NCBI GenBank assembly: GCA_002269645.1
Contig: NIVC01001313.1
Coordinates: 248,001-312,000 of the forward strand
Source of the DNA: Macrostomum lignano
Lineage: Eukaryota
Direction: 5' to 3'
DNA length: 64,000 nt
Shown: piece by piece, positions 1 through 21,500 of the stretch
Numbering within the stretch: position 1 is the stretch's first letter
How the letters are laid out: each line of letters begins with the position of its first letter
Position numbers and translations under genes: made by a program
The notes under the pieces: generated by a model
Databases searched by the model: none
Told to the model about the DNA's origin: nothing
What the model saw: the letters and a program-made list of their open reading frames with translations, nothing else

Positions 1-431
1 ATTACTGGACAGCCTAATGTTCGCACCATACCATGATTTGTTCACAATTGAAATTTGGCCTTCCTGTGAACGCTCAATGCAAATCATCGCATTATCGTCT
101 TGCTCATATTTTAGAGCGGCGATGATTGCATCAACCACTTCGTTGGCTGTTGATAGCCCCGCGGCGAGAGAAACCGACGCAAACTGTTTATACGTGGAGG
201 CGGGTTTTTCTCTCACCTCAATGTCAATCACTTCATCCTCGGAGCGTTGGTCAGGACATCAACCATTCGATTATCGGGGACGGTTTTGAATTCTTTACAA
301 AAGTAGATCCGTTCGATGCAGACTTCATGATTCGGAAAGTGGAGGGTGTCGGGCAAATTAATGCTATAATGTGCCGAATTATTCTCAGGATAGTGCTCAA
401 CGCACGCATTGCTAGGTAGGAATAGATGCAT
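1..431 (-). CDS. Polinton minor capsid protein (penton), N-terminal part, one -1 frameshift near 231-258, runs off the window start
   Basis: MHLFLPSNACVEHYPENNSAHYSINLPDTLHFPNHEVCIERIYF matches the Polinton penton N-terminal pattern (L-x-LPSN...P-x-N...LP...EV); a second frame (SEDEVIDIEVREKP...) is open from about 243 to base 1. Confidence 0.75.
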
Positions 432-465
432 TGTAATATACTACACGTTTCGAGTGTATGTGTGT

Positions 466-1537
466 TCATCCTTGTCTTATATTTATAACTTCCTCAACTG
501 GTACAAATGCATTGAACGACTCGGGATAGCCGCGCCAACTAACGAAATGATGAGCGACACCATTGATGATGACATTGCGACGCAGAATTTTGTCTATAAC
601 AAAGCGTCCGGTCGAACCGTCTTTGAAAGTTCATTATAGTAGAATCGACCCTCGATTTGTTCTCCAGATAGGTCGGAAATGCGATAAAAATGAGGCGGTC
701 CCGGGCATACTTGAGACACAACGTAAACTTCTTCGCTGTACAATCGTATGCTTCCTTGTCAAAGGCTCGACGAGATTTTGAAATTCTGACAAAGTCCCCT
801 TTTTGGTAAACTGGTTCATCATATTCAGGATCCTTGTAGAGCTTTTCCCACAATTCTTTTTGATTGTGCAGACCGACACTCGAAGGTTTCATATCAATAG
901 TAGAGTGTACTGTGTTGTTGTAACTTTTAACCAATATTGGCAAATAGTCGATCCAACGCCACGTGTTTTTATGCTCAAAGTAGCGAGCTAAACGTTTTCG
1001 GAGAGTCCTAATCAGCCTTTCAGCCATATTTGCCTTGTATACAGAGTTTGTACTGTACATTTTGATATTATGGGCTTTCAGTAAGTTCTGCATGCGATTG
1101 TTATAAAACTCGGTACCTCGATCAACGTGTAGATATAAAGGCTTAATGGGGAAGTCTTTGATCATGCTTTCAAAAGCCTTTGGAGTGTCGCTTTTCAATT
1201 TTATTGACTGACAAAAAGCCAATTTACTAAGCACGTCAATTGCAACTAGAATATATCGATGACCATCATTCCATTGTTCGTATCGTGACATGTCCACCAA
1301 ATCCGCTTGCACAGTTTCCATGAAGCCTCCCGACATTACTTTTCCGGTTCGGAATTTTCTTTTAACCCTCTTGTGCCGGGTGTAGCTCGATTGGGTCTTC
1401 AGCCATTCGTCGGTTTGGCGTCTCGTCAGGGAGGGGACCAGCCGTTTGGCCTCCTGATATACACGGGCAGCATTTGTAAAAGCGGCGTCCCCCTGTTCGT
1501 ACACTCTCCGAAGAGCGGTTTTCACCCTCATTCGCAA
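466..1537 (-). CDS. Polinton retroviral-type (rve, DDE) integrase with C-terminal chromodomain; two -1 frameshifts (about 742 and 603)
   Basis: QADLVDM, DRGTEF, MAER DDE motifs and YNNTVHSTI. Shifted frames give YSEEVYVVSQV...GRFYYNEL and FVIDKILRR...HFVSWRGYPESFNAFVPVEEV (chromodomain), stop TGA at 468-466. Confidence 0.92.
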
Positions 1538-1787
1538 CTAGAGTCGATGCACAGCATGAGTAATTACACTTGAACTCCACAGACGGTTTGTCTGAGCAAA
1601 GCTTTGAAGTTACAGCTGCGACCCATGATCCAAAAACAGATTATAAATCATGAAAATGATTTCTATTTATAGTTTTTTTAACGTCTCGTATTTTACTGCT
1701 GGTTTCTGCCGCCTCTTTGGTTCGCGAAGTTGGTATGAAGCATGCCTGTAGGCATCGCTGCCACGATCTTCATATTTTTTATTTCAT

Positions 1788-2338
1788 TCAGGCCACTGGC
1801 TTGGTCTTTGTGGAAGTCGTGTAGAAATCATTAGTTCCAATTGCTTGCTCGACTAAAAAATCGTCTCGATCCGGATCCGTGCCGACTTCTTTTTTCACAC
1901 TGACTTCTTCTTGTTGGCGTCGTCCTAGTAGAGCTTTTGCAATATCTGCCTCTTCGGCCAGGGCCCAAAAAGCGGTACTATATTTGGGCTTGGGCGGTCG
2001 CGCCTTTCATTCGATGTAATCTCCTTCAATAGATCGAAAATATTGCTTCCTGGCCAGGTTTTTCCATCAAATACAATTTCCCACGACTTGTTGTACTCCA
2101 AATTTGGGTATCTTTCTGTCAGCATGTCCCAAACACGTTGTTGTCGTTCAGGAAAACGATTACTCTTCTTTTGCTTGATCTGACTTAGTTTATTTTGGAG
2201 TTGAGTGTTGTATTCAATGAGTTTTTCATATTCTGTTTTGGATGCAATTTCTCGGGGTGCGCCTTGACTTAGTCTATTAAATTCTTCTTCTGGTACAACA
2301 ACGTATTTATTCATTTTAGCGACCAAGTAGTCCGCCAA
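1788..2338 (-). CDS. Conserved Polinton-associated hypothetical protein; -1 frameshift in a T5 run near 1970
   Basis: WEIVFDGKTWPGSNIFDLL motif recurrent in Polinton ORFs that lie next to the pX-like gene; the shifted frame continues FWALAEEADIAKALLG... to TGA at 1790-1788. Confidence 0.55.
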
Positions 2339-2672
2339 ACAGGCTTGATATTAGCGGTGCAGCAACGGATGCAAGGATGGGTAGAAAACCACCGACTTGA
2401 GGATTCGAGAGACGCATATTCTTCTTCCTATTTATAGACAATTTTGTGTCTGCCAATTCACGCAACGATCTTCTGTATCGCTTTAATCGCAGATACTGTT
2501 TCGGAGAAAGATCGATATTTCCCCGGAGCACGTTGTGACTCAATTCACAGAGACAATGAATCAGTTCCTTGCCTGCACCTCGAATAATGGCCCGCCGAAG
2601 AGTGGGACGGGCTTTGGCGAGCTCTGCGAGCTCGCCGCGACAAGAACATAGTCTGGAGATTCCGTTTGTCAT
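2316..2672 (-). CDS. Adenovirus pX-like basic core protein with hydrophobic C-terminal tail
   Basis: Basic body (LIHCLCELSHNVLRGNIDLSPKQYLRLKRYRRSLR) then QVGG|FLPILASVAAPLISSLFGGLLGR, resembling the adenovirus pX tail GGFLPAL; probable start MTNG at 2672. Confidence 0.75.
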   Translation of the reverse strand: MTNGISRLCSCRGELAELAKARPTLRRAIIRGAGKELIHCLCELSHNVLRGNIDLSPKQYLRLKRYRRSLRELADTKLSINRKKNMRLSNPQVGGFLPILASVAAPLISSLFGGLLGR

Positions 2673-2812
2673 TTTGTTTAGCAAAAAGATGTTGGTTGCA
2701 GTGCACTGCAATTTATGCACAATATATTTATAGACAATTTCATAGCAGCTTGTACGTACATACAAATTCGGTACAGTGGTAAAGCAGTAAAGTTACGCAA
2801 CAGCTACATGGA

Positions 2813-3301
2813 TTAGACATGCAAAACGCTAGTCACATGATCGTACATTTGACAGAGCTCTTTAAAGTTTCGTATTCCAAGGAAAACAAGGCGGCCATTC
2901 TTTCCGCATAATAAACATTTAGCATTGCGAAATGGAGACTTTATTACTATTCCATTGAAAACTTCACACTCCCACTTCACCCAGCGGGACCCGGAGTATG
3001 CAATTTGGAAAAAATTTGGCAATCTGTCTACTTCAGCGCGGTAAGTACTAGTGGTAACAACAACAGAAATTGGTTTACATTGAGGAAAAAGACGCAAAAC
3101 TTGGTTGACTGAGCGACAACCGAATACAATTGCAGACAAAGAACGCTGAAAAAAGTTGATTGTACATTTTCCTATTCGCAAATTGATAAGAGCTCTTGGT
3201 CTGCAAAATGTCCGTGCGCTCGCCCAGTCCAAGTCGGGCATGCGGCTCCGTTTCGCGCAAAACACTCGGTTCACACACTCGACGTTCTGCAAGTAGATTT
3301 T
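2813..3301 (-). CDS. Candidate TATA-binding-protein (TBP)-like protein
   Basis: Manual alignment to the TBP core: KIYLQNVECVN vs PQLQNIVSTVN; ALINLRIGKCTINFF...FGCRSVNQ vs AVIMRIREPRTTALIF...TGAKSEEQ; WECEVFNGIVIK vs YEPELFPGLIYR; NGRLVFLGIRNFKELCQMYDHVTSVL vs [26 protein letters not shown]. No ATG upstream of the first motif in this frame. Confidence 0.6.
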   Translation of the reverse strand, partial: KIYLQNVECVNRVFCAKRSRMPDLDWASARTFCRPRALINLRIGKCTINFFQRSLSAIVFGCRSVNQVLRLFPQCKPISVVVTTSTYRAEVDRLPNFFQIAYSGSRWVKWECEVFNGIVIKSPFRNAKCLLCGKNGRLVFLGIRNFKELCQMYDHVTSVLHV

Positions 3302-4023
3302 TCGGCAGTTTTTACTTTCGTATCCTTCTTGGGGGCTTTCGACCGCTTCTTTGATTCGTTGGCTGCTACTAGTTTCGATTGATGCTGTCGCTTTCTGGCC
3401 TGATTTTTAGGCACCTTTGGCTGCTTCTCCTTGACAAGCTTTGGTGGTTTCTTTGCTTTCTTGCTTACTTTCTTGGCGCCTACCTTGATTTTTGGAGGTG
3501 GCGTCCAATAGCAACGATCGAATGCCTGTTTGGCTTCTTCGACAAACTGTAGCTGTTGAATTTTTGGCATTGCGGTCAAAACAGCGTCTCGAATCACGGC
3601 CGTGTCGAGAGTAAACAGAATCCTGTAGTAGCCGCTCTTGTTTTTGTAATCCTCTACAGGCAGTCCGTTTTGGTCGTACATTTTAAAGTCGTGAGCCAGC
3701 CCAAACGCTGCACTGTCACCTCCAAACGCTGGGTTGTAGCCCAGCAGAGCTAGACTTTCGCTGGAAAGGTGCTCCGCCACAGTGTTGAAAGTGTAGGGTA
3801 TGCAGCTTTCAATGTGTTTTTGTGCAATGATGATGAATTCGCGACCTTCGTTGTCAGTACGCACGCCCTTGACGATCAAAACAGGGACCGCATTGGCCAA
3901 GTAGAGAGGTCCCTGTTCGTCATATTCAATGTCAAACGTTTCAACCCCGTTGAAGCTCGGACCTCGCGGTTTGAGTGCCAGCAGCTCTCGCTTGACGCAG
4001 TTGAAGTCTTGCACTGTCTCCAT
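3271..4023 (-). CDS. Candidate OB-fold single-stranded DNA-binding protein (T7 gp2.5/NCLDV type) with Lys-rich tail
   Basis: Pattern FDIEYDEQGPLYL...P...GV and FKMYDQNG...GYYRILFTLD...KIQQLQFVEE fits viral SSB strands; tail KKVSKKAKKPPKLVKEKQPK. Confidence 0.55.
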   Translation of the reverse strand: METVQDFNCVKRELLALKPRGPSFNGVETFDIEYDEQGPLYLANAVPVLIVKGVRTDNEGREFIIIAQKHIESCIPYTFNTVAEHLSSESLALLGYNPAFGGDSAAFGLAHDFKMYDQNGLPVEDYKNKSGYYRILFTLDTAVIRDAVLTAMPKIQQLQFVEEAKQAFDRCYWTPPPKIKVGAKKVSKKAKKPPKLVKEKQPKVPKNQARKRQHQSKLVAANESKKRSKAPKKDTKVKTAEKSTCRTSSV

Positions 4024-4223
4024 GTCTCTTGTCTGTTTAGAAAAATTTGCAGGTACGGGCGCTTGCAGACTAACTAACTAAGATAAGTGCTCCGGCGCCT
4101 CAGCCATTGAAATAGGCTCTTACGCCACTAGACTAAATGAGTTTCCTACTAGGGAGTGTACTAATGTACACTAAAAGCCAAGTTAGACTATAGAGGACTG
4201 TACAGGGCTGAATAAAAAAAACC

Positions 4224-4380
4224 AAACCTCCCCGGGGGACAGTGACAGCGGAACGACATACCAGTCAGGAAGCCCGTGCCCAAAAACCAGGTTTGATAGA
4301 CTCCAGCCTATTAGGGGTGGCCCGAAGGCCTAGAGCCGTGGCTACCATGCTGGGGCCGACCGCCCACCACCCCCGGGTAC
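4224..4380 (-). ncRNA. Structured RNA domain, unit B (157 nt)
   Basis: Closing stem CCCGGGGG/CCCCCGGG, GGCC-UUCG-GGCC hairpin, same conserved blocks as unit A; followed by a T8 run. Confidence 0.6.
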
Positions 4381-4387
4381 AAATCAT

Positions 4388-4539
4388 AAACCTCCCCGAG
4401 GCTAGAGGGAGAAGAGTGAACCATTCAGGGGAGCCCGTGCCTTCTCCTGGGTTAGATAGGCCAAAAATACCGGTCATAAGACCGCCCCCACGGCCGTGGC
4501 AACCCGAAGGAGCCTCCCCCCCAACTAAACCCCGGGTAC
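4388..4539 (-). ncRNA. Structured RNA domain, unit A (152 nt)
   Basis: Closing stem CCCGGGG/CCUCGGG, C(UUCG)G hairpin, conserved blocks shared with unit B. Confidence 0.6.
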
Positions 4540-4946
4540 TCTTGCCAACAGACAGTCTCTTATCTTTGAAGCGGCAGGAGGGCTAATCGCCGGGACTATT
4601 TCACCCTTTGCTTCGCCAACCCGCCATTTCTATTATGACCGTGCCAACGGTCTCGTCCTGCTCAGACTCAGTCCTGGTTCTGGCACACTCCAGCTTTAAT
4701 AGGGTCGCTGGCTGTACGCTCAGAGGGCGCCTGAGGGATACCGTCAGAGCACCTTGGTACAGGTATAGGCCTGCCTTCCTATACAGCTACCCACAGCCCC
4801 TCCCGATCCACTATTACCCTCCAACCCAGCCTACTCACTCATTACAAGCTTTCAGCCAGGCAGAGACAAGTTTCACAGAAGTGACTGCGGTTAGGCGTCT
4901 CTATGCGAGACAAAACCATGTACGGGCGCTTGCAGATGCTCCGGGC

Positions 4947-4994
4947 TGGTGCTTATATACCCGAGAGTCTCAATAAGTTTTTGTTTTAATTACA
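4947..4994 (-). promoter_or_regulatory. Stop codon plus TATA-box segment, copy 1 (TATATAAG at 4959-4952), upstream of the SSB-like gene
   Basis: 48-bp identity with 5742-5789; both copies lie between a stop codon and the next minus-strand gene. Confidence 0.6.
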
Positions 4995-5273
4995 CGATAA
5001 CGAGCTTTTTACAGAGTTGTCGTTATCGAGGATTCCGGAAAAAATGAACCTTTTGTTCCTATTTTCGGGTGCTGGCGTTGGAGGTGTGCTGAAATCCTTG
5101 CTCCAAGTTGCTGGTAGTTCAAGCTTTGGCGGCCTGTTCCTCTTGTGCTTGGGCAGCCAAAAATTCCAAATCTTTTGTTGCTCCTCCCACGACGGATTAT
5201 ACAGATCTTGATGGTTCCGAAAACGTATTTTTTGGCGATGCTCTTCACTTAGTATCGGAGCCAGTACGTTTAT
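4986..5273 (-). pseudogene. Small Polinton ORF X1 (open frame without ATG), paralog of 5781-5984
   Basis: Translates ...NFWLPKHKRNRPPKLELPATWSKDFSTPPTPAP...FSGILDNDNSVKSSLSCN*; several differences from X2 are synonymous or conservative. Confidence 0.5.
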
Positions 5274-5336
5274 CTAATTGATTCTATTAGATTCTATTAG
5301 ATTCTATTAGATTCTATTAGATTCTATTTATCTAAT

Positions 5337-5624
5337 CTATCGGAGCCTGTGTAGTCTTGTGGCTCGTAATCTCTCCATTCGTGCTAAATCAGCTTTGAAT
5401 CTCATTTTGTCCCGTAGTTGCTCATTTATCCTGGCTGCTGCGTAGTCTTGGCTGTCGTAGGGGCCTTGATCAATTTCCTCGACCTTGGCATTGAAGGTGA
5501 CTAATCGCTCGGAAATCGGTTTGCTGTGGCAAATGCACAACCAGTCAGCAGATTTTTTCAAGGCCTCATATTCGTCTTTTTCCTCGTTCGATAATAGGGG
5601 GTAGTCTCCGGAAATCCAGCTCAT
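5337..5624 (-). CDS. Small Polinton hypothetical protein (95 aa)
   Basis: ATG-initiated ORF downstream of the TATA copy at 5754-5747; no family recognised. Confidence 0.5.
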   Translation of the reverse strand: MSWISGDYPLLSNEEKDEYEALKKSADWLCICHSKPISERLVTFNAKVEEIDQGPYDSQDYAAARINEQLRDKMRFKADLARMERLRATRLHRLR

Positions 5625-5741
5625 TTCTTGTCAAGCACTTGCTGCGTTGTTCGCACTAGTGGTGGGGATGTTATTCGAGCTTGAAAAACTGCCGAGAATC
5701 CGAAAAAAAATTTGCAAGTACGGGTGCTTGGTGCCCCGGGT

Positions 5742-5789
5742 TGGTGCTTATATACCCGAGAGTCTCAATAAGTTTTTGTTTTAATTACA
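5742..5789 (-). promoter_or_regulatory. Stop codon plus TATA-box segment, copy 2 (TATATAAG at 5754-5747)
   Basis: 48-bp identity with 4947-4994. Confidence 0.6.
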
Positions 5790-5984
5790 AGTTAACGAGC
5801 TTTTTACGGTGTTGTCGTTATCGAGGATTCCAGAAAAAATGAGACTTGTACCTATTTTCGGTGCTGGCGTTGGAGGTGTGTTGAAATCCTTGCTCAAAGT
5901 TGTTGGCAGTTCATGCTTTGTCGGTCTGATCCTCTTGTGCTTTGGCAACCAAAAATTGCTTGTCAAACACTGCGTTTTCCACAT
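5781..5984 (-). CDS. Small Polinton ORF X2 (67 aa)
   Basis: NFWLPKHKRIRPTKHELPTTLSKDFNTPPTPAP...FSGILDNDNTVKSSLTCN*, paralog of X1. Confidence 0.5.
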   Translation of the reverse strand: MWKTQCLTSNFWLPKHKRIRPTKHELPTTLSKDFNTPPTPAPKIGTSLIFSGILDNDNTVKSSLTCN

Positions 5985-6216
5985 GATTGGGTTGTTAATT
6001 GAACTTGGTGAATTTAGATAAACGGCCGAGAATCCAAATTTTCTTATTTATAGTTTGCTGTCTGAACAAAATTGGTTTGGCATTTACGAGAATATTTCAT
6101 GCATAGAAGTTTGTGTTTTCAGACCTTGATGACGTGTCTGGCTATAAAGTTAGCATTGTGGCTCGACCGGGTTGTTGCGTAACACTGCTGCTGGTAGCTA
6201 TAGCAGCCAGCGCAGG

Positions 6217-6299
6217 GCAGAGGGGTGGATAGCGGCGATTTACAGCGGCTGACTGACTCATCATGCCTCCGCGTGGGGCCGCCAATTAATTGTGGGAGG
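6217..6299 (+). repeat. 83-bp perfect direct repeat, copy 1, directly upstream of TATAAATA (6300-6307) of the virion cassette
   Basis: Identical to 9366-9448; contains an AP-1-like TGACTCA. Confidence 0.95.
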
Positions 6300-6348
6300 T
6301 ATAAATAAAGAAGTTTTCACGAATAAAAGGTAGCAACTGATCGACAAT

Positions 6349-6717
6349 ATGCCTTCAATCTTGATCGGAGGAGCTTTACCGGTATTTTCCGGTGCACAGC
6401 GCGGCAACGGCCTGTTTGGCAGCATTGCCCGATTTGCCCTGCCAATTTTAAAGAGTTTTGGCAAAAATATTCTTCGCCACGGAACACGAGCCCTAGCTAC
6501 AACAGTTAGCGACACACTCGATCAAGGCGGGAACTTGAAAGAAGCAGCATTGCGTAACTCTGTCCAGGCAGCTAAAGATGCTTTCAAGGACACAGTCGCA
6601 CAACGTGGTAGCGGCAGACAAAGACGAAGAAAGATGACTAGCAAAAAAACGAGAAAAAGACTGCAGCATTCTGATATTTTCGACTCTATAAATAAAAAAG
6701 CCCGTGCCAATAACTGA
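6349..6717 (+). CDS. Adenovirus pVII-like core/DNA-condensing protein
   Basis: LIGG|A adenain consensus, QRGNG and QRGSG motifs, Arg/Lys-rich tail RQRRRKMTSKKTRKR; lies upstream of MCP. Confidence 0.7.
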   Translation: MPSILIGGALPVFSGAQRGNGLFGSIARFALPILKSFGKNILRHGTRALATTVSDTLDQGGNLKEAALRNSVQAAKDAFKDTVAQRGSGRQRRRKMTSKKTRKRLQHSDIFDSINKKARANN

Positions 6718-6760
6718 TTTGTCTATTAGAGCACCACACTAAGCCGCTGTTGAAAGAAAA

Positions 6761-8044
6761 ATGACTGAGTGCCTGTGTACAAAGTCGGAATTCGAGCTAT
6801 TTGCTCCTCGCGCACACCAAATTGCTGCAATTAGCGCCACCACTGAAGAAGTTCACCCTGTTGCCAGTGTTGAAAATGCCAGCGTGGTCGAATTTAGGAT
6901 TGTTGGTGGTGAGACGTTTATCGATCTTAACGACATTGACCTCGAGATTAAGGCCCGCGTTAGGCAATCTAATGGCACAAATCTTGCTGCTGATTCGAAT
7001 GTTGCGCCGGTCAATTACGTCCTTGAAAGCATGTTTAAAAACGTCACGTTGACAATCAACGGGACACACGTAGAGTCGAGCAATAACAACCACGCTTACA
7101 AGGCCTATATTCGCACGTGTTTGAATTACGGACACGATTCAAAAACCAATCAACTGAGAATGATGGGCTACGCAAAGGACGCTGGAGGTCAAATGGCTGT
7201 GGTTGGAAATCCTGGCTTTGTAGCCCGCAAGGCGATGGCAGCAAACTCACGCACCTTTCACCTTTATGGACCTCTTAGTTTAGACTTTTTTGTTACCAAC
7301 GACCGAATGCTACTGCCATACACTGATATGGTAATTACGCTGACCATGCACAATTCCGGCTTCGTTCTGGAAAACCACGCGGACGGGGTTGATGCGCGGC
7401 TAGTACTCGAGAGTGCCAAACTACATGTGCGCCGCGTCAAGGCAAACCCCCAATTGGCATTGGAGATTGAAGAACAACTAGGCAAACAGAATGCAATCTA
7501 TCCGATTGAGCGACTTGTTGTGCACAATACTTCAGTGGCTGGCGGTGTTCGGGACATGTCAATCAACAATATATTTCCTGAACAAAAGCCTAAACTAGTG
7601 GTTGTTGGCATGGTAAACAGCGGCGCGTACAACGGTGTGGCTACACATAACCCGTTTAATTTTGAGCCATTTGGTGCCGACAGTGTGGCACTGTATAAGG
7701 ACGGAGTCAGTCTGTGTGGACAACCGTTTACTCCTCGATTCGGTGTTCATAACTATGCTCGCGAGTATGCCATGCTACTAAAAAGCCTAGGAAAGATGAA
7801 TCGGGACCTGGATATTGACGTATCATATTCCGACTATGGAGCTGGCTACTGCTTCTTCGCCTGGAATCTCATGCCCGACATGGAGCTGGGCGGGCATAGC
7901 ATGCCTCGCGAGCGAGGGAATCTGACGCTACAAATAAAGTTTTCTGCTGCCTTGGCCGCAGGAATCAACGTGTTGGTGTTTGGCTACTTTGACAATACTG
8001 TGCAAATCACTCGCGGTCGTCAGGTTATTCTAGACTACGTGTAG
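6761..8044 (+). CDS. Double jelly-roll major capsid protein (Polinton hexon-like MCP)
   Basis: CTKSEFELF...VEFRI...FIDL N-terminus and HNPFNF, GYCFFAWNL, GNLTLQIKF, polinton MCP patterns; intact 427 aa. Confidence 0.92.
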   Translation: MTECLCTKSEFELFAPRAHQIAAISATTEEVHPVASVENASVVEFRIVGGETFIDLNDIDLEIKARVRQSNGTNLAADSNVAPVNYVLESMFKNVTLTINGTHVESSNNNHAYKAYIRTCLNYGHDSKTNQLRMMGYAKDAGGQMAVVGNPGFVARKAMAANSRTFHLYGPLSLDFFVTNDRMLLPYTDMVITLTMHNSGFVLENHADGVDARLVLESAKLHVRRVKANPQLALEIEEQLGKQNAIYPIERLVVHNTSVAGGVRDMSINNIFPEQKPKLVVVGMVNSGAYNGVATHNPFNFEPFGADSVALYKDGVSLCGQPFTPRFGVHNYAREYAMLLKSLGKMNRDLDIDVSYSDYGAGYCFFAWNLMPDMELGGHSMPRERGNLTLQIKFSAALAAGINVLVFGYFDNTVQITRGRQVILDYV

Positions 8045-8091
8045 AAACAAACATTTTTTTATTCTCAAATAACGGCCATATTCATGCCGAT

Positions 8092-8541
8092 ATGAATAGT
8101 CTAGATATATTAGAACGTCTAATACTGCCTGTCCCTGTTCGAGTAACACCCGTTGACAGGATTCCGCAGCCTGTTTATCCTGCTGCATACGTGATTAACT
8201 TTGACACTGGCAATCTACCAGGCACTCACTGGGCTTTAATTTGTCTTCATGCCGATGAGAGCGTGACATTTTTTGACCCCTTGTGTATCGAACCTGTGCC
8301 AGATTTATTAAAGTTGTGGATCGCAAAGTATGTCTCCGCGGAGGTTGCAATGAACCGGCATCCTGTACAGCATCCGCTAAGTGTGACCTGCGGGGCTCAT
8401 GTAATATTTGTGGCTGAAAAACACTTTTTGGAGGGTCTGTCAATTGAAAAAATATTGCGCGACTGTTATAGCACAAATCTTTACGAGAACGACTTGATGG
8501 TGCAGAATCACTGTCTACAAATAAAGCAGCATCATCCATAA
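8092..8541 (+). CDS. Adenain-type cysteine maturation protease
   Basis: GTHW (His), FFDP (Asp), VQ (oxyanion Gln), TCG (Cys) in clan CE order. Confidence 0.92.
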   Translation: MNSLDILERLILPVPVRVTPVDRIPQPVYPAAYVINFDTGNLPGTHWALICLHADESVTFFDPLCIEPVPDLLKLWIAKYVSAEVAMNRHPVQHPLSVTCGAHVIFVAEKHFLEGLSIEKILRDCYSTNLYENDLMVQNHCLQIKQHHP

Positions 8542-8543
8542 AT

Positions 8544-9194
8544 ATGATTGGGCGGCCTATCAAAATGTATCAAACAATAGACCCCGACTCTTTAAAATTT
8601 GCCCCCAAAACGTCTGCAATTTTTGCTGGGGTGGCTCAAAGCGGCAAGACCACACTTGTGAAAAACCTATTGAGACAAGAATTTTTTCAAGATCCGAAGC
8701 CGATTCGCGTAGACTGGTTTGGCCACTATCCGGATCCTGAACTGTTTGAATTGCCGTACCCTGTAAATTTTCGTTCGTGTACATTTGATCCTGAACAATA
8801 TGTCCCTGACCCAAATATTCTGCTTGTCGTCGACGACCAAATGCATGCCATGGAAAAGAGTGGCGCTTTTACAACTTTTTTCACGCGCAAAGTCTCCCAC
8901 GTGGGGTTCCGACTTTGGTATCTTGTGCAAAACCTGTTTGCAAAGGGTAAGGAGCACCGAACTCAGTCGCTCAATTCGAACTACCTTGTTTTATTCCGCA
9001 ATGTACGGGATGCCAGCACAGTGTCTCATATTGCAAGGCAGCTGGTCCCAACTAATCCAAAAAGTTTTGTCAAAACGTATGAGGATGCTACTCGCGACCC
9101 CTACTCATACTTGATTGTAAACTGTTTGCAAAATGCTCCTGCTCGCTATTATTCAAACGTTTTGGGTCGTCACCCAATTGTGTATGCTAAATAA
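8544..9194 (+). CDS. A32/FtsK-family genome-packaging ATPase
   Basis: Walker A GVAQSGKT, Walker B LLVVDD, downstream YLVQNLF and SLNSNYLVLF; stop codon overlaps AATAAA. Confidence 0.93.
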   Translation: MIGRPIKMYQTIDPDSLKFAPKTSAIFAGVAQSGKTTLVKNLLRQEFFQDPKPIRVDWFGHYPDPELFELPYPVNFRSCTFDPEQYVPDPNILLVVDDQMHAMEKSGAFTTFFTRKVSHVGFRLWYLVQNLFAKGKEHRTQSLNSNYLVLFRNVRDASTVSHIARQLVPTNPKSFVKTYEDATRDPYSYLIVNCLQNAPARYYSNVLGRHPIVYAK

Positions 9195-9255
9195 ATATAT
9201 ACGTATCAAAGCTCGGCCGGCTTTTTGTGTAAATATATATACGCCTTTTGAAAAC

Positions 9256-9770
9256 TTATTTGACTCTGAGGAGGGGTTGGGTATGACGTAATTGCCCCGG
9301 AGTGGCTACGGAGGACAGAATTCTAGAGGGATGGAGTATGGTGTGAGTGGATATAACAGGCTGCAGCAGAGGGGTGGATAGCGGCGATTTACAGCGGCTG
9401 ACTGACTCATCATGCCTCCGCGTGGGGCCGCCAATTAATTGTGGGAGGCAACAGAATATTTTCTTGGATGGGTGGGCGCTACAATTCTGTGCGTACACGA
9501 AGTTTGGGTTTGATCGAACAGCTATGGGGTGGGCGGACGCTACAATTCTGCCAATTTTTGGTATATGGACAGTAAATATGGACAAGTAATAATATGGACA
9601 GTTATGGGGTGGGTCGGCGCGCGTTAATTCTGCCAATTTTGGTATATGGACAGTTAATATGTACAGTTAATTCTGCGCTACACCAATGCTGCATTGTGCG
9701 GGGCTGGGGGCGCGCGCGTTTCTGCGTACAACAACTGCGGAGCGCTAATTATGCGTACTATATTGTACTG
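9256..9770. repeat. Probable Polinton terminal/subterminal repeat region
   Basis: Non-coding; internally repeated motifs (tatggacag, tggggtggg, aattctgccaatttt); the partner TIR is outside the window. Confidence 0.5.
9366..9448 (+). repeat. 83-bp perfect direct repeat, copy 2
   Basis: Identical to 6217-6299. Confidence 0.95.
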
Positions 9771-11593
9771 GTCGTCGCTTCTGTACGATACAGTGATTAC
9801 ATGTATAATTAGATTTACATGAGAGTATAAATGTCTCACATAATGACTCTGGACCAATTAGAATCGGTCTAATGTATTTAGATAGGCGCTGAATTTGCAT
9901 TGGCTCTGACACCCACCTCACCTCCAAAACCCGGCTCTAACGGCGCGATACGTAGTTTCAATACATCCCTGTGCGCCAATCACTAGCCAAGCCTCCAAAT
10001 TTCATATCAGCACGTCGACCACGTGTGTCTGCATCAGCGGCCTGATTTTATAGGTTATTGGCTTTCTCCCATACGGAGCTTCTGGACCTTCAACAGGTGG
10101 CCTTTTGTAGTCAAATTCTACAGATTTCGCTTGACTTATTTAGTTCAAGCGCAAATCTATCTAAAAAACGCTAAACTGACACTCAAATAAAAGTAGTGCG
10201 TCATTAAGAATCAGAGCGTAGCTATAATTAAACAAATCTATTGTTTCAATCGCCACTGTGAACAAATGTTTATTTAATAACTTCTGAATTTACTATTGAA
10301 ATATACTTTCAATTTTTTGCAACTGCATTCTAACAAGTTTTATTTGTCAGAAGTTGTCTAGATCAGCACTTCTAGTAAAAGTAATAGTTAAATTTCTATG
10401 AGGATCAATTAAGTGTTTTGCAACTGAATTCGTCCAACAAACTGCAAAATCTTTCGTTCGCTAATGCCTTCTTAATGGGAGCTAAATTAAGATCATGCCA
10501 TACATAGACAGCTGCGTTCGCGCAAATGCAAAACATGATTGAAGTGACGGTTCGTTGGTTTGCTAGCATGGGTAACTGTGTGCGGTTTTTTGCTTAACTT
10601 TATTCTGCTAACTCAGTCACTTAACTTTATTCAATGCTAAACTTCTATGTACTCTGTAAACCAATGCGTACTCTGTGCAATTCAGTGTACATCATTGCTC
10701 TAGCCTTGCCTCGCCCCTTAAATCCCTCCACTTGCTCAATCATGCAGTGCATCAATATAGTTCAATACTCCACTTCAATATTTTCAATAGTCGCAATATT
10801 TAAACCATTGCTCTCGATCTGTGTCTCGTCAAGCAACTTAGACAATTCTACTACTGCAAATATATCGCAAGAATTTATACTCGTTCAAACAACATTCGAT
10901 TCCTGACTTTCGCGTCACGTCAATGATGACAGTCCAGCAGAGACTTAAGGTGAGCGCGGGCCCCATCAAAGATAATTCCACCCCACTCAGCCTCCACCAG
11001 AACATCCAGCTCTACTAATAAGTTTGCTAAATTTTCAGCTCAAAAACCTCCCCCCACAAATGCATAATTAAGAAGTCCCCATTGCAGAGATATGGGGCCA
11101 ATCACAGAGTGGAGTTTTGTTTTAGCCACATACTGTTCTCACAGCAGGCTGCAACCTCGATGTGCCCATCTTTGAGTTCTCGCCGTCCAAAGGTTCAGCC
11201 CATGTAGGTACTCATCAAGAAAGATCAGGCTTCCATCGTGTACGTTCTTCGCACAGCTCCGAACGCAGCTGCTGTCTATGGAATTATCTAAATTTAGCTC
11301 CCGTTAAGAAAGCATTAGTGGTCGAAAGATTTTGTTGTATAGTTTGGAAGAATTCAATTGCAAAAAGTTATATATGGTGGGTGCATTGCTGCAGTCACAG
11401 TTACAATGCAACAACCAACGCCCCATTGACACTAGTGTTATGTGGACATTGTTGCACGCGTTGTTGTTGCAAGTGCCTCATTATTGCATGCTGAGGGCTT
11501 GCTGTCTATGGCTGAACCCCACAGTGGTCTTGCTCTTGTTAACAATGTCATTCATGCAAAGCCGCAACGAAGTTTCATGCAGAATCGATCGGC

Positions 11594-14142
11594 CTACACA
11601 ACCTCTTTGAACAGCGGCATGATGACCAAGATGATGAGGGTTGACGCGGACGCTGCCACCAGGAAGAGCCAGAACAGCATGCGATCCACGATGAAGGCCA
11701 GCATTCGCCAATCGTTGATGAGCAGCTGGGCGGCCTCATCCTCGGCCTGTTTGCGCATCAGGTAGCGCAGGTGCCGCTGCATCCGGTCGTACTGCCGGTA
11801 GCGCTTGTCCGCCTCCATCGTGGTTGACTTTCCTTCCACTCCGCCGCCGGAGCCGTTGCTGGCCTCCGTCTGAGCGGCGTCCGCAGCGGCGGAAACTTCT
11901 CGACGAGACTCCTCGTAGCGCTGGCGCCGACGGCCGGCCTTGCGCTGGTAGCGCGCCACGGACGACATGCAGAGCAGCGGCGCCAGCCGGTTGAACAGGA
12001 GGCTGCGCAGCTGCCGCGGCACCGGCCGGTCGTTCGGGCCAACATGGTGCAGGTGGAGCACGAATACGGTGAGCACGATTGACAGCGAGGTGGTCGACAT
12101 GGTCACTGTCAGGTAGATGCCTGCAAGTGCGCGGCAGAAATTCTAATTGAGTCAAAGCTTCAGTTCAGACTTCTAAAATGCTACATAAAAACACTACCTT
12201 AAGACACGTAGAAGATCCATTATTAAATTAGCATAAAGTTTTGCATTTAGGGTTTTATTTCACGAGGAGAGACTAAAGCACCGTGACTTCTATAATAATT
12301 CAGATGATGGCCCTATATCTCAAGGACGTTTGTCTGTAAATTTCTTCACTTTACATGTACGAGCGTAAACAAAAGGAGGTTAGCTGATAGTCTCACTTCC
12401 AATTACGAGGGGTGTCCCAAAAGTTCCCGGAATGTCTAACGTAGCTCTTCAACGGAGCCATGATGTTTCACGCCCTTGGTGTCATTATTCGATTTGTCTG
12501 TGGGTAAAAGCTTTTGGTAAGACATTTTCGCAGCGTATCGTTCACGGAAATGACAGTTCGGTAGACAAGACAATGTCTATGGCTCAACCCGAATGAGAAA
12601 AAAATTTAAAGACGATAGAGTCAATGTACAGAAGCTAGTCACTGTACAGAGCTGATCAATGTACAGGAGCTAGTCAAGGCTACCGGACATTTTCCCTCCG
12701 GCATTTGCCCTCCGGACATTTGCCCTCCGGCATTTCCCCTCCGGACATTTGCCCTCGAGGACATTTGCCCTCGGGGACATTTGCCCTCCGGACATTTGCC
12801 CTCCGGACATTTGCCCTCGGGGACATTTCCCCTCTGGAAAAGTACAGGTAAGGCTGGGGATAGGGTAGGGCGCGGGTATATATTGCTTACTAGAAAAGGA
12901 TGAGTTGTTGGCTGGAGAAGAACCTGATGGATGCAAGAGGCGGGAGGATGAGGTTGGTGCTGGAGGAACGACGGGTGGGTACAGGAGGAGGTGAGGTGAG
13001 TAATGTGCGAGGGGGTAAATTTGCAGAGGGCAAATGTGCGGAGGGGAAATGTCCGGAGGGCAAATGTCCGGAGGGCAAATGTCCCCGAGGGCAAATGTCC
13101 CCGAGGGGAAATGTCCGGAGGGCAAATGTCCGGAGGGGAAATGTCCCGGAGGGCAAATGTCCGGAGGGCAAACGCCGCCGAGGGGAAGTGCCGGAGGGCA
13201 AGTACCGGAGGGGAAGTGCCGGAGGGCAAATGTCCGGAAGCGGCTAGTCAATGTACAGAGCTGATCAATGTACAGGAGCTAGTCACTGTACAGAGCTGAT
13301 CAATGTACAGAATTGGCCAATGTACAGCGAGGTACAGTTCCCACTCCAATCAAAGCGCCTTTCTAAGTATTTCCCCAGAAACAATTTGTTTTGTTACCAT
13401 AGCAACACAAGCCCGAGTGTCCATACTCACCGATCAGAGGCACGAACTCGCTAGTTGCCGGCATGTTCTCAGCTATGAGCAGCATAAACACTGAGAAGGC
13501 CAGCAGCACAGTGATGCCCAGAGTGATTTTCTCCCCTGAGTCGGGCGGCAGCCAGAATCCCAACAGGCTGAGCAGGGTGAGCCACAGGCAGGGAAAGATT
13601 ATGTTGAACAGGTAGTACAGGGTGCGGCGCTGGATCACTATGTGGAACTTGATGTCCGGGTAGGGCACCGGGCTGATGGGGTAGACCGTCTGGAATTCGG
13701 ACCCGGCGGGAGACCGGCTATTGTGCCATTTATGCAGCTGCAATAATGCCATTCTTATCCCTTGAAACTCCACATGTTCCTCCTCTCTCCCTGTCCCTCA
13801 CCCTGACTGTCTTTTTGCCTCTCCCTCTTCCTTCTCCCTCTCGCTCCCTCTCTGTCCCTCTCCGTCACCTTTATTTCTCTCTCTCTCTCCGTCTCCCTCT
13901 CTCCCTCCCTCTCCCCCTCTCTCTCTCCCTCTCTCTCTCCCTCTCTCTCTCTCCCTCTCTCTCTCCCTCTCCCTCTCTCTCCCCTCTCTCTCTCCCTCTC
14001 CCTCTCTCTCTCCCTCTCTCTTTCTCTCCCTCTCTCTCCCTCTCTCTCCCTCTCTCTCTCTCCCTCCCTCTCCCTCTCTCTCTCTCCCTCTCTCTCTCCC
14101 TCTCCCTCTCTCTCCCTCTCTCTCTCCCTCTCTCCCTCTCCC

Positions 14143-14184
<42 letters not shown>

Positions 14185-17100
14185 TCCCTCTCCCTTACCC
14201 TCTCCCTCCTACTCATCTACTTTATATCCCTTGATGTTCTCTTTATCCCCTCTCCCTGCCAGTCTCAGTCCATCTGTGATTAGCAAAACTGGGCTAATCA
14301 CAGGCTAATAACTGGGCTAACACCATGGACGTCGCCAGCCTGTACACCAACATCCCGACGGAGGCCGGCCTCGAGTGCGTGCGAAGAGCGTTTAGGGAGC
14401 ACCCGGACAGCCGGCGCCCAGACGCCAGCCTACTCAGCCTGCTCAAGCTGAACCTGGAGCGCAACGACTTCGAGTTTGACGGCAGGTACTTTCTGCAGGT
14501 GAAAGGCACTGCCATGGGGAAGTCGTTCGCGCCCAGCTACAGCAACATCTACATGGGCTATTGGGAGCAGAGAGGCCTGGAGACCAGCCCGCAGAAGCCC
14601 AGCCTGTGGCTCCGCTACATCGACGACGTCTTTGGAGTGTGGCGTGGCACAGAGGCGGAGCTGGTCCAGTTCCATCAACACCTGGACGCCCTCGACCCCA
14701 ACATCCGACTTCAACTGAGCTACAGCAGCACAGAGGTGAACTTCCTAGACACCACCGTCTTCTGGGACCGCGAAGGCGACAGCAAAAGCCTGGCAACCAG
14801 GGTATATTTCAAGCCCACCGACAGCCGAGTCCTTATCCACCGCGACTCCTTCCATCCTAAGCGAACTTTCCGGGGCGTGGTAAAGTCCCAGCTCCTCAGG
14901 TACGCCCGGCGATGCTCCCGGATGGCCGACTTCGACGCAGCGTGCACCGGGCTGATGTCGAATCTGGTGCAGCACCAAGGCTACAGCCGGCGCTTCCTCC
15001 GCACCATCAAGTACGACGTGCTGACGGAGCTCGGCTTCTACCCGACCAGACGGTGGGAGTTCGGCTTCCTGCCGTGCAACTCGGCCCGACTCTGCAAGTG
15101 CTGCCAGGCGCACGCCAGGTTCACCTCCGTCTGCCCCGGATCAGCAGCCACGACAGTCCAGATCATCATCAGTCAGCGGATCGACTGCAACGCCACGAAC
15201 GCCGTCTATGCCGTGTTCTGCCGCCGGTGCGACCACACGGTCTACGTCGGCGAGACCGCCAACAGCATCCGTGGTCGCATGCTGGCGCACATCGGTGACA
15301 TCCGGCACACCCGTGACACTCCGGTAGCGCGCCACTTCACCAGCGGTGGCCACAGTCTGACGGACTTCGCCTTCACCGGCATCTGGACACGCGATGGCAC
15401 AGGACCCAGAGCTGACGAGCGGCGTCAGCGCCAGGCCAAGTTTATCGAGGTCCTGAGGACTCATGTTCCACACGGCGCCAACGAACTTGCCGGCATACTG
15501 CACAAACCGGCCATCCCGCTGATCCTGCCCCACTGTGCGACCTCCGACGCCCTGGCTGCCAAAGTGAAGGACAGGGTGATACGCCACTGCGAGACCCCGG
15601 TGCTGCCCGCCTACACCAAGGGGAGAAGCCTCCGGACTCTGCTCTCTCATAGTCGGCTCGATCCTGCCAACTAGGCCCCTTTTGACGCCTGTACAAAGGC
15701 TCTTTTACTGCTATTTTTCCCCTCTGTGATTTTTTCATTGACTTTATTTTGATTTATTCAGATTATTTATTCTCTGCTTTTTATTCATTTTTCTGACACT
15801 GTGTACGGTGCACCTGCATTTTTTGCTCTGAGCATTTAATAATAGCTTTTATTTACCTTATCTATTTATTTTGCCATTTATTTTTACAATTTTTATTCTA
15901 CACTCAAAGGTCGTCTAGGCCCACTTGTACAGTTTTAGCCACCCCCGCTTTTCTCATAGTCTCGGACTCGTTTTTATGTACTGACCATGCGTACTGTTTT
16001 AAGTGCTTGAGCACATCAATTTATCGATCGTCTCTCCCTGGCGATATCGCCTTTATATATTGATGGCAATTCGCGCCAAATAAACTTCACTCGCTTACAG
16101 CCCTGACGAAGAAATTTAATTTTGAAATATCGGCTACTCAATTTAAATTGACTTTTTTCAGTCCTTTCTGACTTTCTACCGTGTCAGTGCCCGGGATTGG
16201 AGGCGCCCTCTCTCTCTCTCTCTCTCCCTCTCTCTCTCTCCCTCTCCCTCTCCCTTACCCTCTCCCTCCTACTCATCTACTTTATATCCCTTGATGTTCT
16301 CTTTATCCCCTCTCCCTGCCAGTCTCAGTCCATCTGTGATTAGCAAAACTGGGCCAGAATCTGCGCTGCTCACCTCCTGACGATCCACGTCGACTCGTAG
16401 CAGGTTCCACTCGCCGCTTTGCACGTAGTTGGCGAAGTCCACCTCTTCTCGTCTAGAATGGCGGATTTGAGTGCAGTGCTGAATGCGACTCAGACTCATA
16501 TAGACTCAGACTCATATAGACTCAGACTCATATAGACTCAGACTCATATAGACTCAGACTCATATAGACTCAGACTCATATAGACTCAGACTCATATAGA
16601 CTCAGACTCATATAGACTCAGACTCATATAGACTCAGACTCATATAGACTCAGACTCATATAGACTCTTTCTACGCACAGTAATAGGATGCGTTCGTTAA
16701 CTCACTTTTTAGTAATATTAACTTGATAACCATCGTAGGTCCACGATCCGAACTTCATCGTGCACACCTGATCGTCAAACGGGAAATAGGTGATGTCGAT
16801 TTTGCAGGTAGAACGCAGCTTAGCTGGCGGAGGCCAGAACACGGTGCCGCTTGAGTCCACCATCGCCTTGCTCTGCATGTAGCCTGTGGTGAAGTCGTCC
16901 GCGCTGCAGTTCATTGTTGAGGAGGATGGTGTAGGGAGCAATTCATATAGTGTAGGGACGGCGCCCCACAGCTATCCATACAGTGTAGGGACGGCGCCCC
17001 ACAACTATCCATATATAGTGTAGGGATAGCGCCCCACAACTATCCATATATAGTTTAGGGATGGCGCCCCACAGCTATCCATACAGTGTAGGGACGGCGC

Positions 17101-20100
17101 CCCACAACTATCCATATATAGTGTAGGGATAGCGCCCCACAGCTATCCATATATAGTGTAGGGACGGCGCCCCACAGCTATCTATGTATAGTGTAGGGAT
17201 AGCGCCCCACAACTATCCATATATAGTGTAGAGATAGCGCCCCTCAACTATCCATATATAGTGTAGGGATAGCGCCCCACAACTATCCATATATAGTGTA
17301 GAGATAGCGCCCCTCAACTATCCATATATAGTGTAGGGATAGCGCCCCTCAACTATCCATATATAGTGTAGAGATAGTGCCCCTCAACTATCCATATATA
17401 GTGTAGGGATAGCGCCCCACAACTATCCATATATAGTGTAGAGATAGTGCCCCTCAACTATCCATATATAGTGTAGAGATAGTGCCCCTCAACTATCCAT
17501 ATATAGTGTAGGGATAGCGCCCCTCAACTATCCATATATAGTGTAGGGATAGCGCCCCTCAACTATCCATATATAGTGTAGAGATAGTGCCCCTCAACTA
17601 TCCATATATAGTGTAGAGATAGTGCCCCTCAACTATCCATATATAGTGTAGGGATAGCGCCCCACAACTATCCATATATAGTGTAGAGATAGTGCCCCTC
17701 AACTATCCATATATAGTGTAGAGATAGTGCCCCACAACTATCCATATATAGTGTAGAGATAGCGCCCCTCAACTATCCATATATAGTGTAGGGATAGCGC
17801 CCCACAACTATCCATATATAGTGTAGGGATAGCGCCCCACAACTATCCATATATAGTGTAGGGATAGCGCCCCACAACTATCCATATATAGTGTAGGGAT
17901 AGCGCCCCACAACTATCCATATATAGTGTAGGGATAGCGCCCCACAACTATCCATATATAGTGTAGGGACGGCGCCCCACAACCATAGTAAAGAAAGTAA
18001 TTTTCAAGCCACTGTAAATCTAGCCAAACAACAAACTTCAGAGCAATGAACTCCTTAAACTCCTTAAATAATTGACTCTGAAAGTCAAACTCGCAACTCA
18101 TATCTCTGTTAAATCCCGAACAGCTAACGGGGATCTGAGGAGAATATAAATTGACCCGCTAAGGCCAGACAGAGCCCCATAGATACGCCCCGGATACATA
18201 AACATAGAAAAGCCCTGGGCAATCGATCACCTTTCCTCTGGTCGGGATTTCAGAAGACGAAGCGTTCGGCTTGCCGAAAAAAAGAGTCATGCGCTTCCCA
18301 ATGTAGTACCCATTATTTATCCCCAGATAGAGAAATCCCCAACTGAGATTTTTGCATATCTAAAATGCGACTGAAACTATATGAGCTGACAGTTGATAAA
18401 TGCTCACAAAATGCTGCGGATATTTCTATTGTACTTTTTAGCAGATATATGATCTCACCGGTTGTACTAGTACAGCACAATATCAGCATGATCTCACCTG
18501 TTGTACAGCACAATATCCGACATGATTTTACCTGGTGTACAGCACAATATAAGCATGATCTCACCGGTTGTACAGCACAATATCAGCATGATCTCACCTA
18601 TTGTACAGCACAATATCAGCATGATCTCACCTGTTGTACAGCACAATATCAGCATGATCTCACCTGTTGTACAGCACAATATCCGGCAGCCAAATCTTCT
18701 GACAGGGCACGCGCAACACCTGCAGGCCATTGTAGTCGCTGGGATCCCAGTGCAGCCGTTCGTCCTGCCATTCCTGAATGCGACATGACGGAGGAAGTCC
18801 ATGGTTATGCATGCAGTTACAGGCAGGTTCAGCCGACAGTCGACCCCTCAAGAAGGGTGTACAGCGGCCCAGACTTTCATCCCAGTAAAGCCAGTGTACA
18901 CTTTTTGCGCCTTGTGGGTTGGCCCTGATGGACGTGAATCACTCGAGATGCACGCGTCTAACATGGAAAAGCTACCTCATCATTTTCTCCATTTACTTTA
19001 ATCCTCAAAGGCAAGTCTCACCTGTTCTAGCCAGACGTTGGTTGTAAGTACCTGGTTCACTTCATCCTGTAAAATCCAAAGGAAATTTTTAAAGACACTT
19101 CATACTCGTAGTATAAAATATGAATGAGCTGGTCTTCAGTGCCTAATGAGTAATCAAAACATTTTTTGTTCACCTTTGCTTTGTCGAGATCATGTGTATG
19201 CAGGGACTTATCTGAGATCCCTACACACCCACTCGGCGCTACCTTTCTGCGTGAAGTACTGAAATTCACTCACAGTCGTATTTAGTTAGCTGTGTGCGCG
19301 CTCGAATTCAAAATGGGGGATTCAACAAGCTCTCTATACGGTACTAAAAATGGTTCCATGATAAGACTCGCTCTGATAAATTTTTCTGCCTCAAATTTTC
19401 TACTCCTATCACGTGACTGGCACAGATGAAAACCACCTCAGTATGTTTCTGCCCCCCTGTCACGTGACTGGCACAGATGAAAACCACCTCAGTATGTTTC
19501 TGCCCCCCTGTCACGTGACTGGCACAGATGCAAAACCACCTCAGTATGTTTCTGCCCCCTGTCACGTGACTGGAACAGATGTAAAACCACCTCAGTATGT
19601 TTCTGCCCCCTGTCACGTGACTGGCACAGATGAAAACCACCACAAGATGTTTTACCCCCTGTCACGTGACTGGCACAGATGAAAACCACCACAATATGTT
19701 TCGACCCCTGTCACGTGACTGGCACTGATAACAACCACCCAAATCACCCGGCCCAAGGAAGGGAAAGAAGGGGAGGGGAACCAACCATGTCCGCGATGAG
19801 GATTAGTGCAAAGCCGAACTTCACCATCACCTGGCTGGATGAGTTGAGCACAGGCCGGACGGCCGAGTCGTATCCGGCCAGAATCCGCTTCATCAGGGCC
19901 TGCTCATCGGGTACCGGCGCTCCGGCACCAGCAGAACAAAAATTCGGGGGAGAGAAGTACGCATTAACGATGTCGCGTTGATTAGTAACTCACCAGCTGA
20001 GAGATTTGAATCAGAGCCAGCTGGAACCGGACTTCCACCGTGTTGCTGGCGTTAAACGTTGGCCTGGAGGCTGAGTCATAGTTCAGCATCAGCAGAGTGA

Positions 20101-21458: not shown

Positions 21459-21500
<42 letters not shown>

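Follow-up and report, generated by a model that had tools for sequence, protein, structure and literature searches.

We conclude that the two tandem RNA domains of about 155 nt found in the window, the whole 64-kb stretch of DNA analysed here, are real, selected and of no known family, and that their carrier is very probably a retroposon lying in the promoter of a Polinton. Between the two units 69 positions have stayed unchanged although the stems now have other bases, and none of 4227 Rfam families matched. Such a domain is a seed for a new RNA family, which the motif may found. The initial annotation had offered two readings: a duplicated retroelement domain, or an analogue of the tandem adenovirus VA RNAs. 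We now correct it: the RNA is Polinton cargo, not a viral VA-type gene. A retroelement domain has become the best reading because the insert that carries both units is flanked by a duplicated target site, ends in a microsatellite and has a paralogous empty site. In our estimate there is about an even chance that the units arose by an ancient duplication and act in cis as RNA domains of a non-LTR retroposon of 850 nt without ORFs, with this origin and a protein-binding role taken jointly. The features are collected in Table 1.

Table 1 Features of the Polinton, its insert and the two RNA units
Feature	Position	Strand	Evidence or description
Polinton integrase (rve)	539..1531	-	PF00665, E 1.8e-8
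250-aa Polinton ORF, downstream of insert	3271..4023	-	open frame
Target-site duplication, downstream copy	4053..4069	-	17/17 identical to upstream copy
Non-coding insert, putative non-LTR retroposon, carrier of units A and B	4070..4919	-	850 nt; direct repeats, empty-site paralogue, composition, short ORFs
(TTAG)3 microsatellite tail, insert 3' end	4070..4081	-	three units only
3'-terminal stem-loop, candidate reverse-transcriptase recognition element	4093..4127	-	helix probabilities 0.88-0.96; z -2.3, ends picked once the fold was known
Possible long-range helix around both units (4833-4793 with 4213-4174)	4174..4833	-	-37.4 kcal/mol; 3/2000 shuffles as good
Unit B, paralogous domain	4224..4380	-	closing helix 4377-4370/4238-4231; rod; inner stem 4337-4330/4306-4299
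Unit A, structured RNA domain	4388..4539	-	closing helix 4536-4530/4401-4395; long G-U-rich rod; inner stem 4495-4491/4463-4459
Further folded domains, insert 5' part (4753-4679, 4630-4568)	4568..4753	-	z -3.6, -2.0, ends picked once the folds were known; not homologous to units
Target-site duplication, upstream copy (17 bp)	4920..4936	-	exact 17-mer repeat
TATA box of interrupted Polinton promoter	4953..4959	-	upstream of insert
Polinton promoter paralogue without insert (empty site)	5706..5957	-	similarity to both insert flanks
Polinton major capsid protein, double-jelly-roll-like	6761..8044	+	PF21738 on 14-30% of members, three best clusters
Polinton A32-like packaging ATPase	8544..9194	+	PF04665 on 41-52% of members, three best clusters

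Both units lie where the initial annotation had placed them, on the minus strand with a 7-nt spacer, and carry the shared blocks it described in identical order. Each also has one cUUCGg, at non-equivalent places (4509 in A, 4327 in B), and a T8 run stands near the end of unit B, at 4221-4214. In a block-anchored alignment the two agree at 69 of the 80 columns inside blocks, compared with 14 of the 85 outside them, where the alignment was padded rather than optimised. The global alignment score of A and B was 110, a value reached by none of 5000 dinucleotide shuffles (mean 37.5, sd 9.3). The units are true paralogues, with homology well above chance. Their four runs of at least eight identical bases had an equal in only one of 1372 neutral simulations (the identity-matched subset of 6000 run). 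Since such a block-wise pattern is rare under the neutral decay of a duplicate, it points to selection on the blocks since an old duplication. A coding explanation of the blocks was rejected: their reading frame shifts between units A and B. No third unit was found in the window, nor in positions 1-12000 with filters off.

All inference of structure draws on two sequences, units A and B. Helices for shuffling were picked after the folds had been seen, which makes the following p-values optimistic. The 69 shared positions were kept constant and only the variable bases were permuted. The 12-bp pairing of the 5' and 3' arms was then matched in 25 of 1000 shuffles for A and 15 of 1000 for B; the overall energy was matched in 60 (A) and 46 (B) of 1000. 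For the inner GGC..GYC stem, which starts from the GGC of block 2, 20000 such shuffles gave p = 0.032 for its 5 bp in A and p = 0.002 for its 8 bp in B. Two double-sided and one single-sided change occur in the five aligned pairs of this inner stem. Cognate arms outpaired swapped arms (-13.0 and -11.2 versus -9.8 and -7.6), and half-swapped units folded worse than native ones (-64.5 and -65.3 versus -67.1 and -73.2). The variable bases favour the long closing rod and the inner stem in both A and B. Against strong structure, neither 3' arm outdoes its own shuffles in pairing with the 5' arm (0.30 and 0.16), and whole-unit folding z-scores (A/B) are modest, at -1.4/-1.9, or at -0.8/-1.3 when the ends are shifted slightly. 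The minus strand gives the stabler folds, with more G-U pairs (6/48 and 9/52 pairs versus 2/44 and 3/47); for a G-rich minus strand, greater stability is expected from composition alone.

The hand-drawn four-way fold was not borne out. It costs 6 kcal/mol in A (-61.1 versus a minimum of -67.1) and 21 kcal/mol in B (-52.0 versus -73.2), its GGCYCC/GGUWGCC hairpin and ACC-CWGG arm have ensemble probabilities of about 0-0.07 in both units, and the helices specific to it show no double-sided change. In the favoured rod, GGUWGCC pairs with GGCUYCC, with a probability of 0.99 in B and about 0.5 in A, and consensus folding concurs. A variant joining the lower rod to the inner stem lies only 0.9 (B) and 3.6 (A) kcal/mol above the minimum; in both units its junction strands are AC, UAUCWAA and CACG. 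Thus a rod, perhaps with a three-way junction at its top, appears to fit better than the four-way fold, and by computation the invariant strands AC, UAUCWAA and CACG would surround the top of this G-U-rich rod. The core of unit A has three folds within 4 kcal/mol. Because its cUUCGg falls exactly at the site needed by the GGCYCC/GGUWGCC hairpin, the four-way fold may be an alternative state in that unit.

We found no match to Rfam 15 at the gathering threshold anywhere in the 64 kb, and nothing credible at E values up to 10 for the units, the 5' part of the insert and the tail. The best sub-threshold match, HOTTIP_2, scored 16.9 bits against a threshold of 80 and lay on the opposite strand. 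These negatives, the pairing of variable bases and the conservation of the blocks support the earlier claim of a conserved structured RNA motif of no known family. Likenesses to an HCV-type IRES, a flavivirus xrRNA, RNase P, SRP, and the c-di-GMP and ZTP riboswitches were discarded, as the order of motifs was mismatched and Rfam lent no support. Literature searches, which did not extend to Repbase, Dfam or most subscription journals, listed no paper on this motif or on structured RNA in Polintons; repeat consensus libraries could contain this family.

Comparison with nucleotide collections was equally blank. There was no blastn match among phages, for the insert at E 1 or the units at E 10, or among plasmids for the insert at E 1. 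A three-block pattern occurred at 11 loci in 185,579 prokaryotic genomes, which we regard as chance: not one of them showed even a single one of four flanking features looked for, and the best model score was 7.9 bits, from a covariance model (R1) that is a weak detector of distant copies because one block of its MAFFT alignment was misregistered by a base. Three of the 11 loci were inspected; among them, the Comamonas match falls inside a protein-coding frame, FKBP-type isomerase-like by eye. These searches for homologues covered prokaryote, phage and plasmid collections. Homologues are expected in animal genomes and eukaryotic viral contigs, so the blanks say little on novelty.

The Polinton setting that had been proposed for the units was confirmed by an rve integrase and by look-alikes of a double-jelly-roll capsid protein and an A32-type ATPase, but the units sit in an insertion and not in native Polinton sequence. 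By eye, integrase-like sequence seems lost in the last ~70 residues of the integrase ORF, so this Polinton copy may be decayed. The 250-aa ORF matched no Pfam or PHROG family, and an ORF at 8092-8541, Polinton protease-like by eye, had no match in Pfam, PHROG or PDB. An exact 83-bp direct repeat (6217-6299/9366-9448) flanks the capsid-protease-ATPase block. The TATA-bearing promoter region has undergone nested segmental duplications (5165-4917/5957-5715 and 5683-5704/6017-6038, 88-92% identical), and a further TATA-like box lies near 6050. A 10-bp tandem array at 5273-5328 stands directly downstream of a 95-aa ORF; a 150-nt segment containing it has a plus-strand folding z of -5.3. The gene content of the window is that of an animal, with ion-channel, RIC3 and SET1-type genes; the closest SETD1-like matches had 27-33% identity, and kinase matches were uninformative as to the host. 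Other repeats in the window include a tandem duplication at about 13700-28300 (period about 7.3 kb, with a 35-bp minisatellite and CT-rich repeats), a foldback/MITE-like inverted array of 15-16-bp units at 12700-13240 (arms up to 88 nt, 95% complementary) that adjoins an ion-channel exon, and a 55-bp minisatellite of at least 24 copies at 37492-39056.

Several features mark the insert as foreign to its surroundings. Its flanking duplication is the sole exact 17-mer repeat in positions 3300-6300, leaving out the paralogous segment and the 10-bp tandem array. The empty site aligns at 88% identity over 249 columns to 5165-4917, and then, with nothing between, at 23 of 25 positions to 4065-4041; it is a paralogue rather than an allele, 800 bp from the insert. 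The insert has 20% A and 31% G, against 29-31% A and 22% G in the Polinton flanks. The three-unit TTAG run is unique in the window, with two 2-unit runs elsewhere on the plus strand. RTE elements are reported to make duplications of 6-20 bp and to end in simple repeats (PMC2887409), and target-primed insertion to be marked by filled versus empty sites (PMC2848041). An origin of the insert as a non-LTR retroposon is thus very probable; the element would be non-autonomous, or else a 5'-truncated LINE of which the long 3' UTR is left. It is conceivable that the 17-bp repeat is instead a functional promoter duplicate, since it overlaps a motif also present at the paralogous promoter, although no TATA box precedes the copy at 4069.

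The open frames of the insert are short only. On the plus strand, an antisense frame at 4212-4976 has one stop in 254 codons (124 + 129 aa open). Its first part, of 124 aa, had no relatives among 1.84 billion protein representatives; none of 10 exact protein look-ups matched, including that of the second part, taken from its ATG. The two further folded domains in the 5' part gave no significant covariance-model match and no Rfam match. The one at 4630-4568 is compact and has a GGG-UGAAAUAGU-CCC hairpin that resembles a T-loop. The G-rich arm of the possible long-range helix finds a better partner in 2 of 136 insert windows, and the helix has a probability of only about 0.3 in the ensemble of the whole insert. 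No second insertion was found within the 64-kb window.

How would such an element be transcribed? The earlier remark that box B is lacking was borne out: we found no exact box A or B. Allowing one mismatch, 11 box A-like matches were scattered over 4960-4050, and a single box B-like match at 4298, without the first G, coincides with the UAUCAAACC block of unit B, a loose resemblance that speaks against our reading. RNA polymerase III transcription is reported to end at four or more T (PMC7589676); a T5 lies inside each unit (4467 and 4286), and the insert has five runs of at least four T. No exact boxes and a T5 in each unit make RNA polymerase III unlikely and leave read-through by polymerase II. 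A classical SINE with a tRNA, 5S or 7SL head was likewise rejected, given these T runs, no exact box, no Rfam match and no tRNA gene found.

The insert starts about 40 nt downstream of the start of the Polinton TATA box, and by the usual TATA spacing the expected start site falls in the target-site duplication's upstream copy. The Polinton promoter would therefore start a transcript about 10-15 nt before the element. After an ATG at 4919, eight more ATG triplets precede the 250-aa ORF. With one copy in hand, the position of the insert at a start site could reflect either targeting or chance.

We propose that the retroposon RNA is made by such polymerase II read-through. A partner LINE protein would then bind the 3' stem-loop and tail and prime reverse transcription, while the two domains would bind a host or partner protein twice over, for particle assembly or localisation. 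The logic of the duplicated domain may be that of the two Alu monomers, which bind SRP9/14 to reach L1 ORF2p (PMC11485995). The RNA was copied uncut, the two units in one piece with the tail and with 380 nt upstream of them, which fits a binding role better than efficient cleavage.

The insert could instead have arisen once only, when a non-coding RNA of the host or the untranslated region of an RNA virus was retrocopied, its tandem domains being passengers here that act in the source RNA, in translation, export or decay resistance or as a protein scaffold. There is one copy in 64 kb, the insert looks multi-domain with a possible closing helix, and cellular RNAs are known to be retrocopied with duplications (PMC4494074). 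The tail, however, is a microsatellite behind a stem-loop and not poly(A), and no Rfam 15 family matched at threshold, including the IRES, SRP, telomerase, RNase P/MRP and snRNA models as far as Rfam includes them. We consider such a retrocopy unlikely.

Each unit might also belong to an undescribed ribozyme class that cleaves itself or ligates, with a three-way junction as the active form and the rod as an inactive alternative. The order stem-AC-stem-UAUCWAA-stem-CACG fits both units, and the three-way fold lies close to the minimum in energy, as given above. The invariant strand lengths of 7, 4 and 2 resemble a hammerhead core with different bases, a comparison made after the fact. Promoterless retroelements are described as often leaving co-transcripts via ribozymes (PMC6765202), and tandem ribozyme pairs bounding segments of 186-399 nt have been reported (PMC13725137). 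Against this, a motif scan upheld the earlier statement that the units lack hammerhead and twister cores. The hammerhead motif CUGANGA was absent from both strands, and its relaxed matches and all GAAA lay outside the units. Strict twister and pistol motifs were absent as well; relaxed twister matches on the minus strand fell outside the units. A twister-sister-like cleavage strand, with the motif taken from PMC11620745, was absent from the units. A relaxed HDV-like descriptor of our own gave one minus-strand match outside the units (4757, with an atypical loop) and four plus-strand rows at one site (4322), but no HDV-like fold in the units on the minus strand, and Rfam gave no HDV-like ribozyme. 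The third stem would have only 2 bp, and cleavage 150-470 nt from the 3' end would remove the part actually copied. A ribozyme seems distinctly improbable. We are slightly more doubtful of an elaborate form, in which a promoterless retroposon would target Polinton polymerase II start sites, be transcribed from its own first base and carry two copies of an undescribed catalytic RNA switching between rod and active fold.

Alternatively, the blocks could be DNA-level motifs or tandem-repeat remnants in a Helentron/DINE-like DNA element, their RNA pairing incidental. The modest z-scores and the pairing of arms at the level of their own shuffles agree with this, and elements of this kind carry microsatellites and central repeats (PMC4067079). 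They are described in the same source as having subterminal inverted repeats and no target-site modification, whereas the insert has a 17-bp duplication and no inverted repeat joining its ends (0 of 7 inverted pairs), and a Helentron/DINE-1-like element was rejected on these grounds. The variable bases, moreover, favour identical helices in A and B, and DNA-parameter folds of the units are weak. We give this reading little credence.

A location inside a spliceosomal intron, which the units would stabilise after its excision or from which they would be processed, is very unlikely. A GTGAGT donor-like site (4838-4833) and a T8-ATTCAG acceptor-like site (4221-4208) do bracket both units on the minus strand, and the two strands of the 64 kb together have 39 donors and 12 acceptors of this kind, but both signals are short. 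Nor was a box C (tested) or an H/ACA architecture seen, and retrocopies normally lose introns. A CUGAC branch-like motif is present near 4266, in a conserved block of unit B.

Least of all do we credit a Polinton-encoded pair of RNA polymerase III transcripts, the VA RNA I/II analogy of the initial annotation: Polintons are relatives of adenoviruses, the size of about 155-160 nt, the head-to-tail pairing and the terminal stem agree, and a single mismatch separates unit B's UAUCWAACC block from a box B pattern, but the units were inserted and are not native to the Polinton, box B is lacking, each unit has its T5, no terminator follows unit A (the T8 follows only unit B), and the spacer is 7 nt versus 98 nt.

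If the units prove to be duplicated, protein-binding domains of a retroposon, they would show that the dimer strategy of Alu can also be reached independently of 7SL and polymerase III; if they cleave, they would represent a new ribozyme class. Because retroposon families supply many copies for covariation, the route to function is a cheap one.

Among known systems, the VA RNAs I and II are likewise two head-to-tail domains of ~160 nt with a terminal stem (PMC7589676). The units differ from them in not being native to the virus, and in their lack of box B, internal T5, short spacer and lack of a shared central GGGU-ACCC pair, which is possible in unit A, while unit B has GGGU only in its closing stem. 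Hammerhead and other ribozymes are, like the units, retroelement-borne, and one candidate three-way junction has similar strand lengths (PMC6765202, PMC11620745); in the units, however, the core bases are absent and the site would lie near the 3' end rather than the 5' end. RTE-clade LINEs, with their truncated and non-autonomous derivatives, share the short duplications and simple-repeat 3' ends of the insert, and 5' truncation is described as common among them (PMC2887409). Their 3' UTRs are reported to be very short, with the RT frame close (PMC2887409), in contrast to an insert of 850 nt without a recognisable coding remnant. The Alu dimer also consists of two diverged, structurally conserved monomers in a non-autonomous retroposon (PMC11485995); the units have no SRP/7SL match, no boxes A/B and no poly(A), and their dimer is internal. 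The Sadhu retroposons of Arabidopsis, compared with the insert by description only, are about 900 nt long, non-coding and bounded by target-site duplications of 7-18 bp, and are described as lacking RNA polymerase III boxes and resembling no known RNA, with empty-site evidence as well (PMC2848041). These elements, however, come from plants, end in poly(A) and have a conserved motif at the 5' end (PMC2848041), whereas the insert comes from an animal, ends in (TTAG)3 and carries two structured domains that are conserved. On our reading, the insert comes nearest to non-coding retroposons of the Sadhu kind, which do without polymerase III; it would work like an Alu dimer from outside the Alu family.
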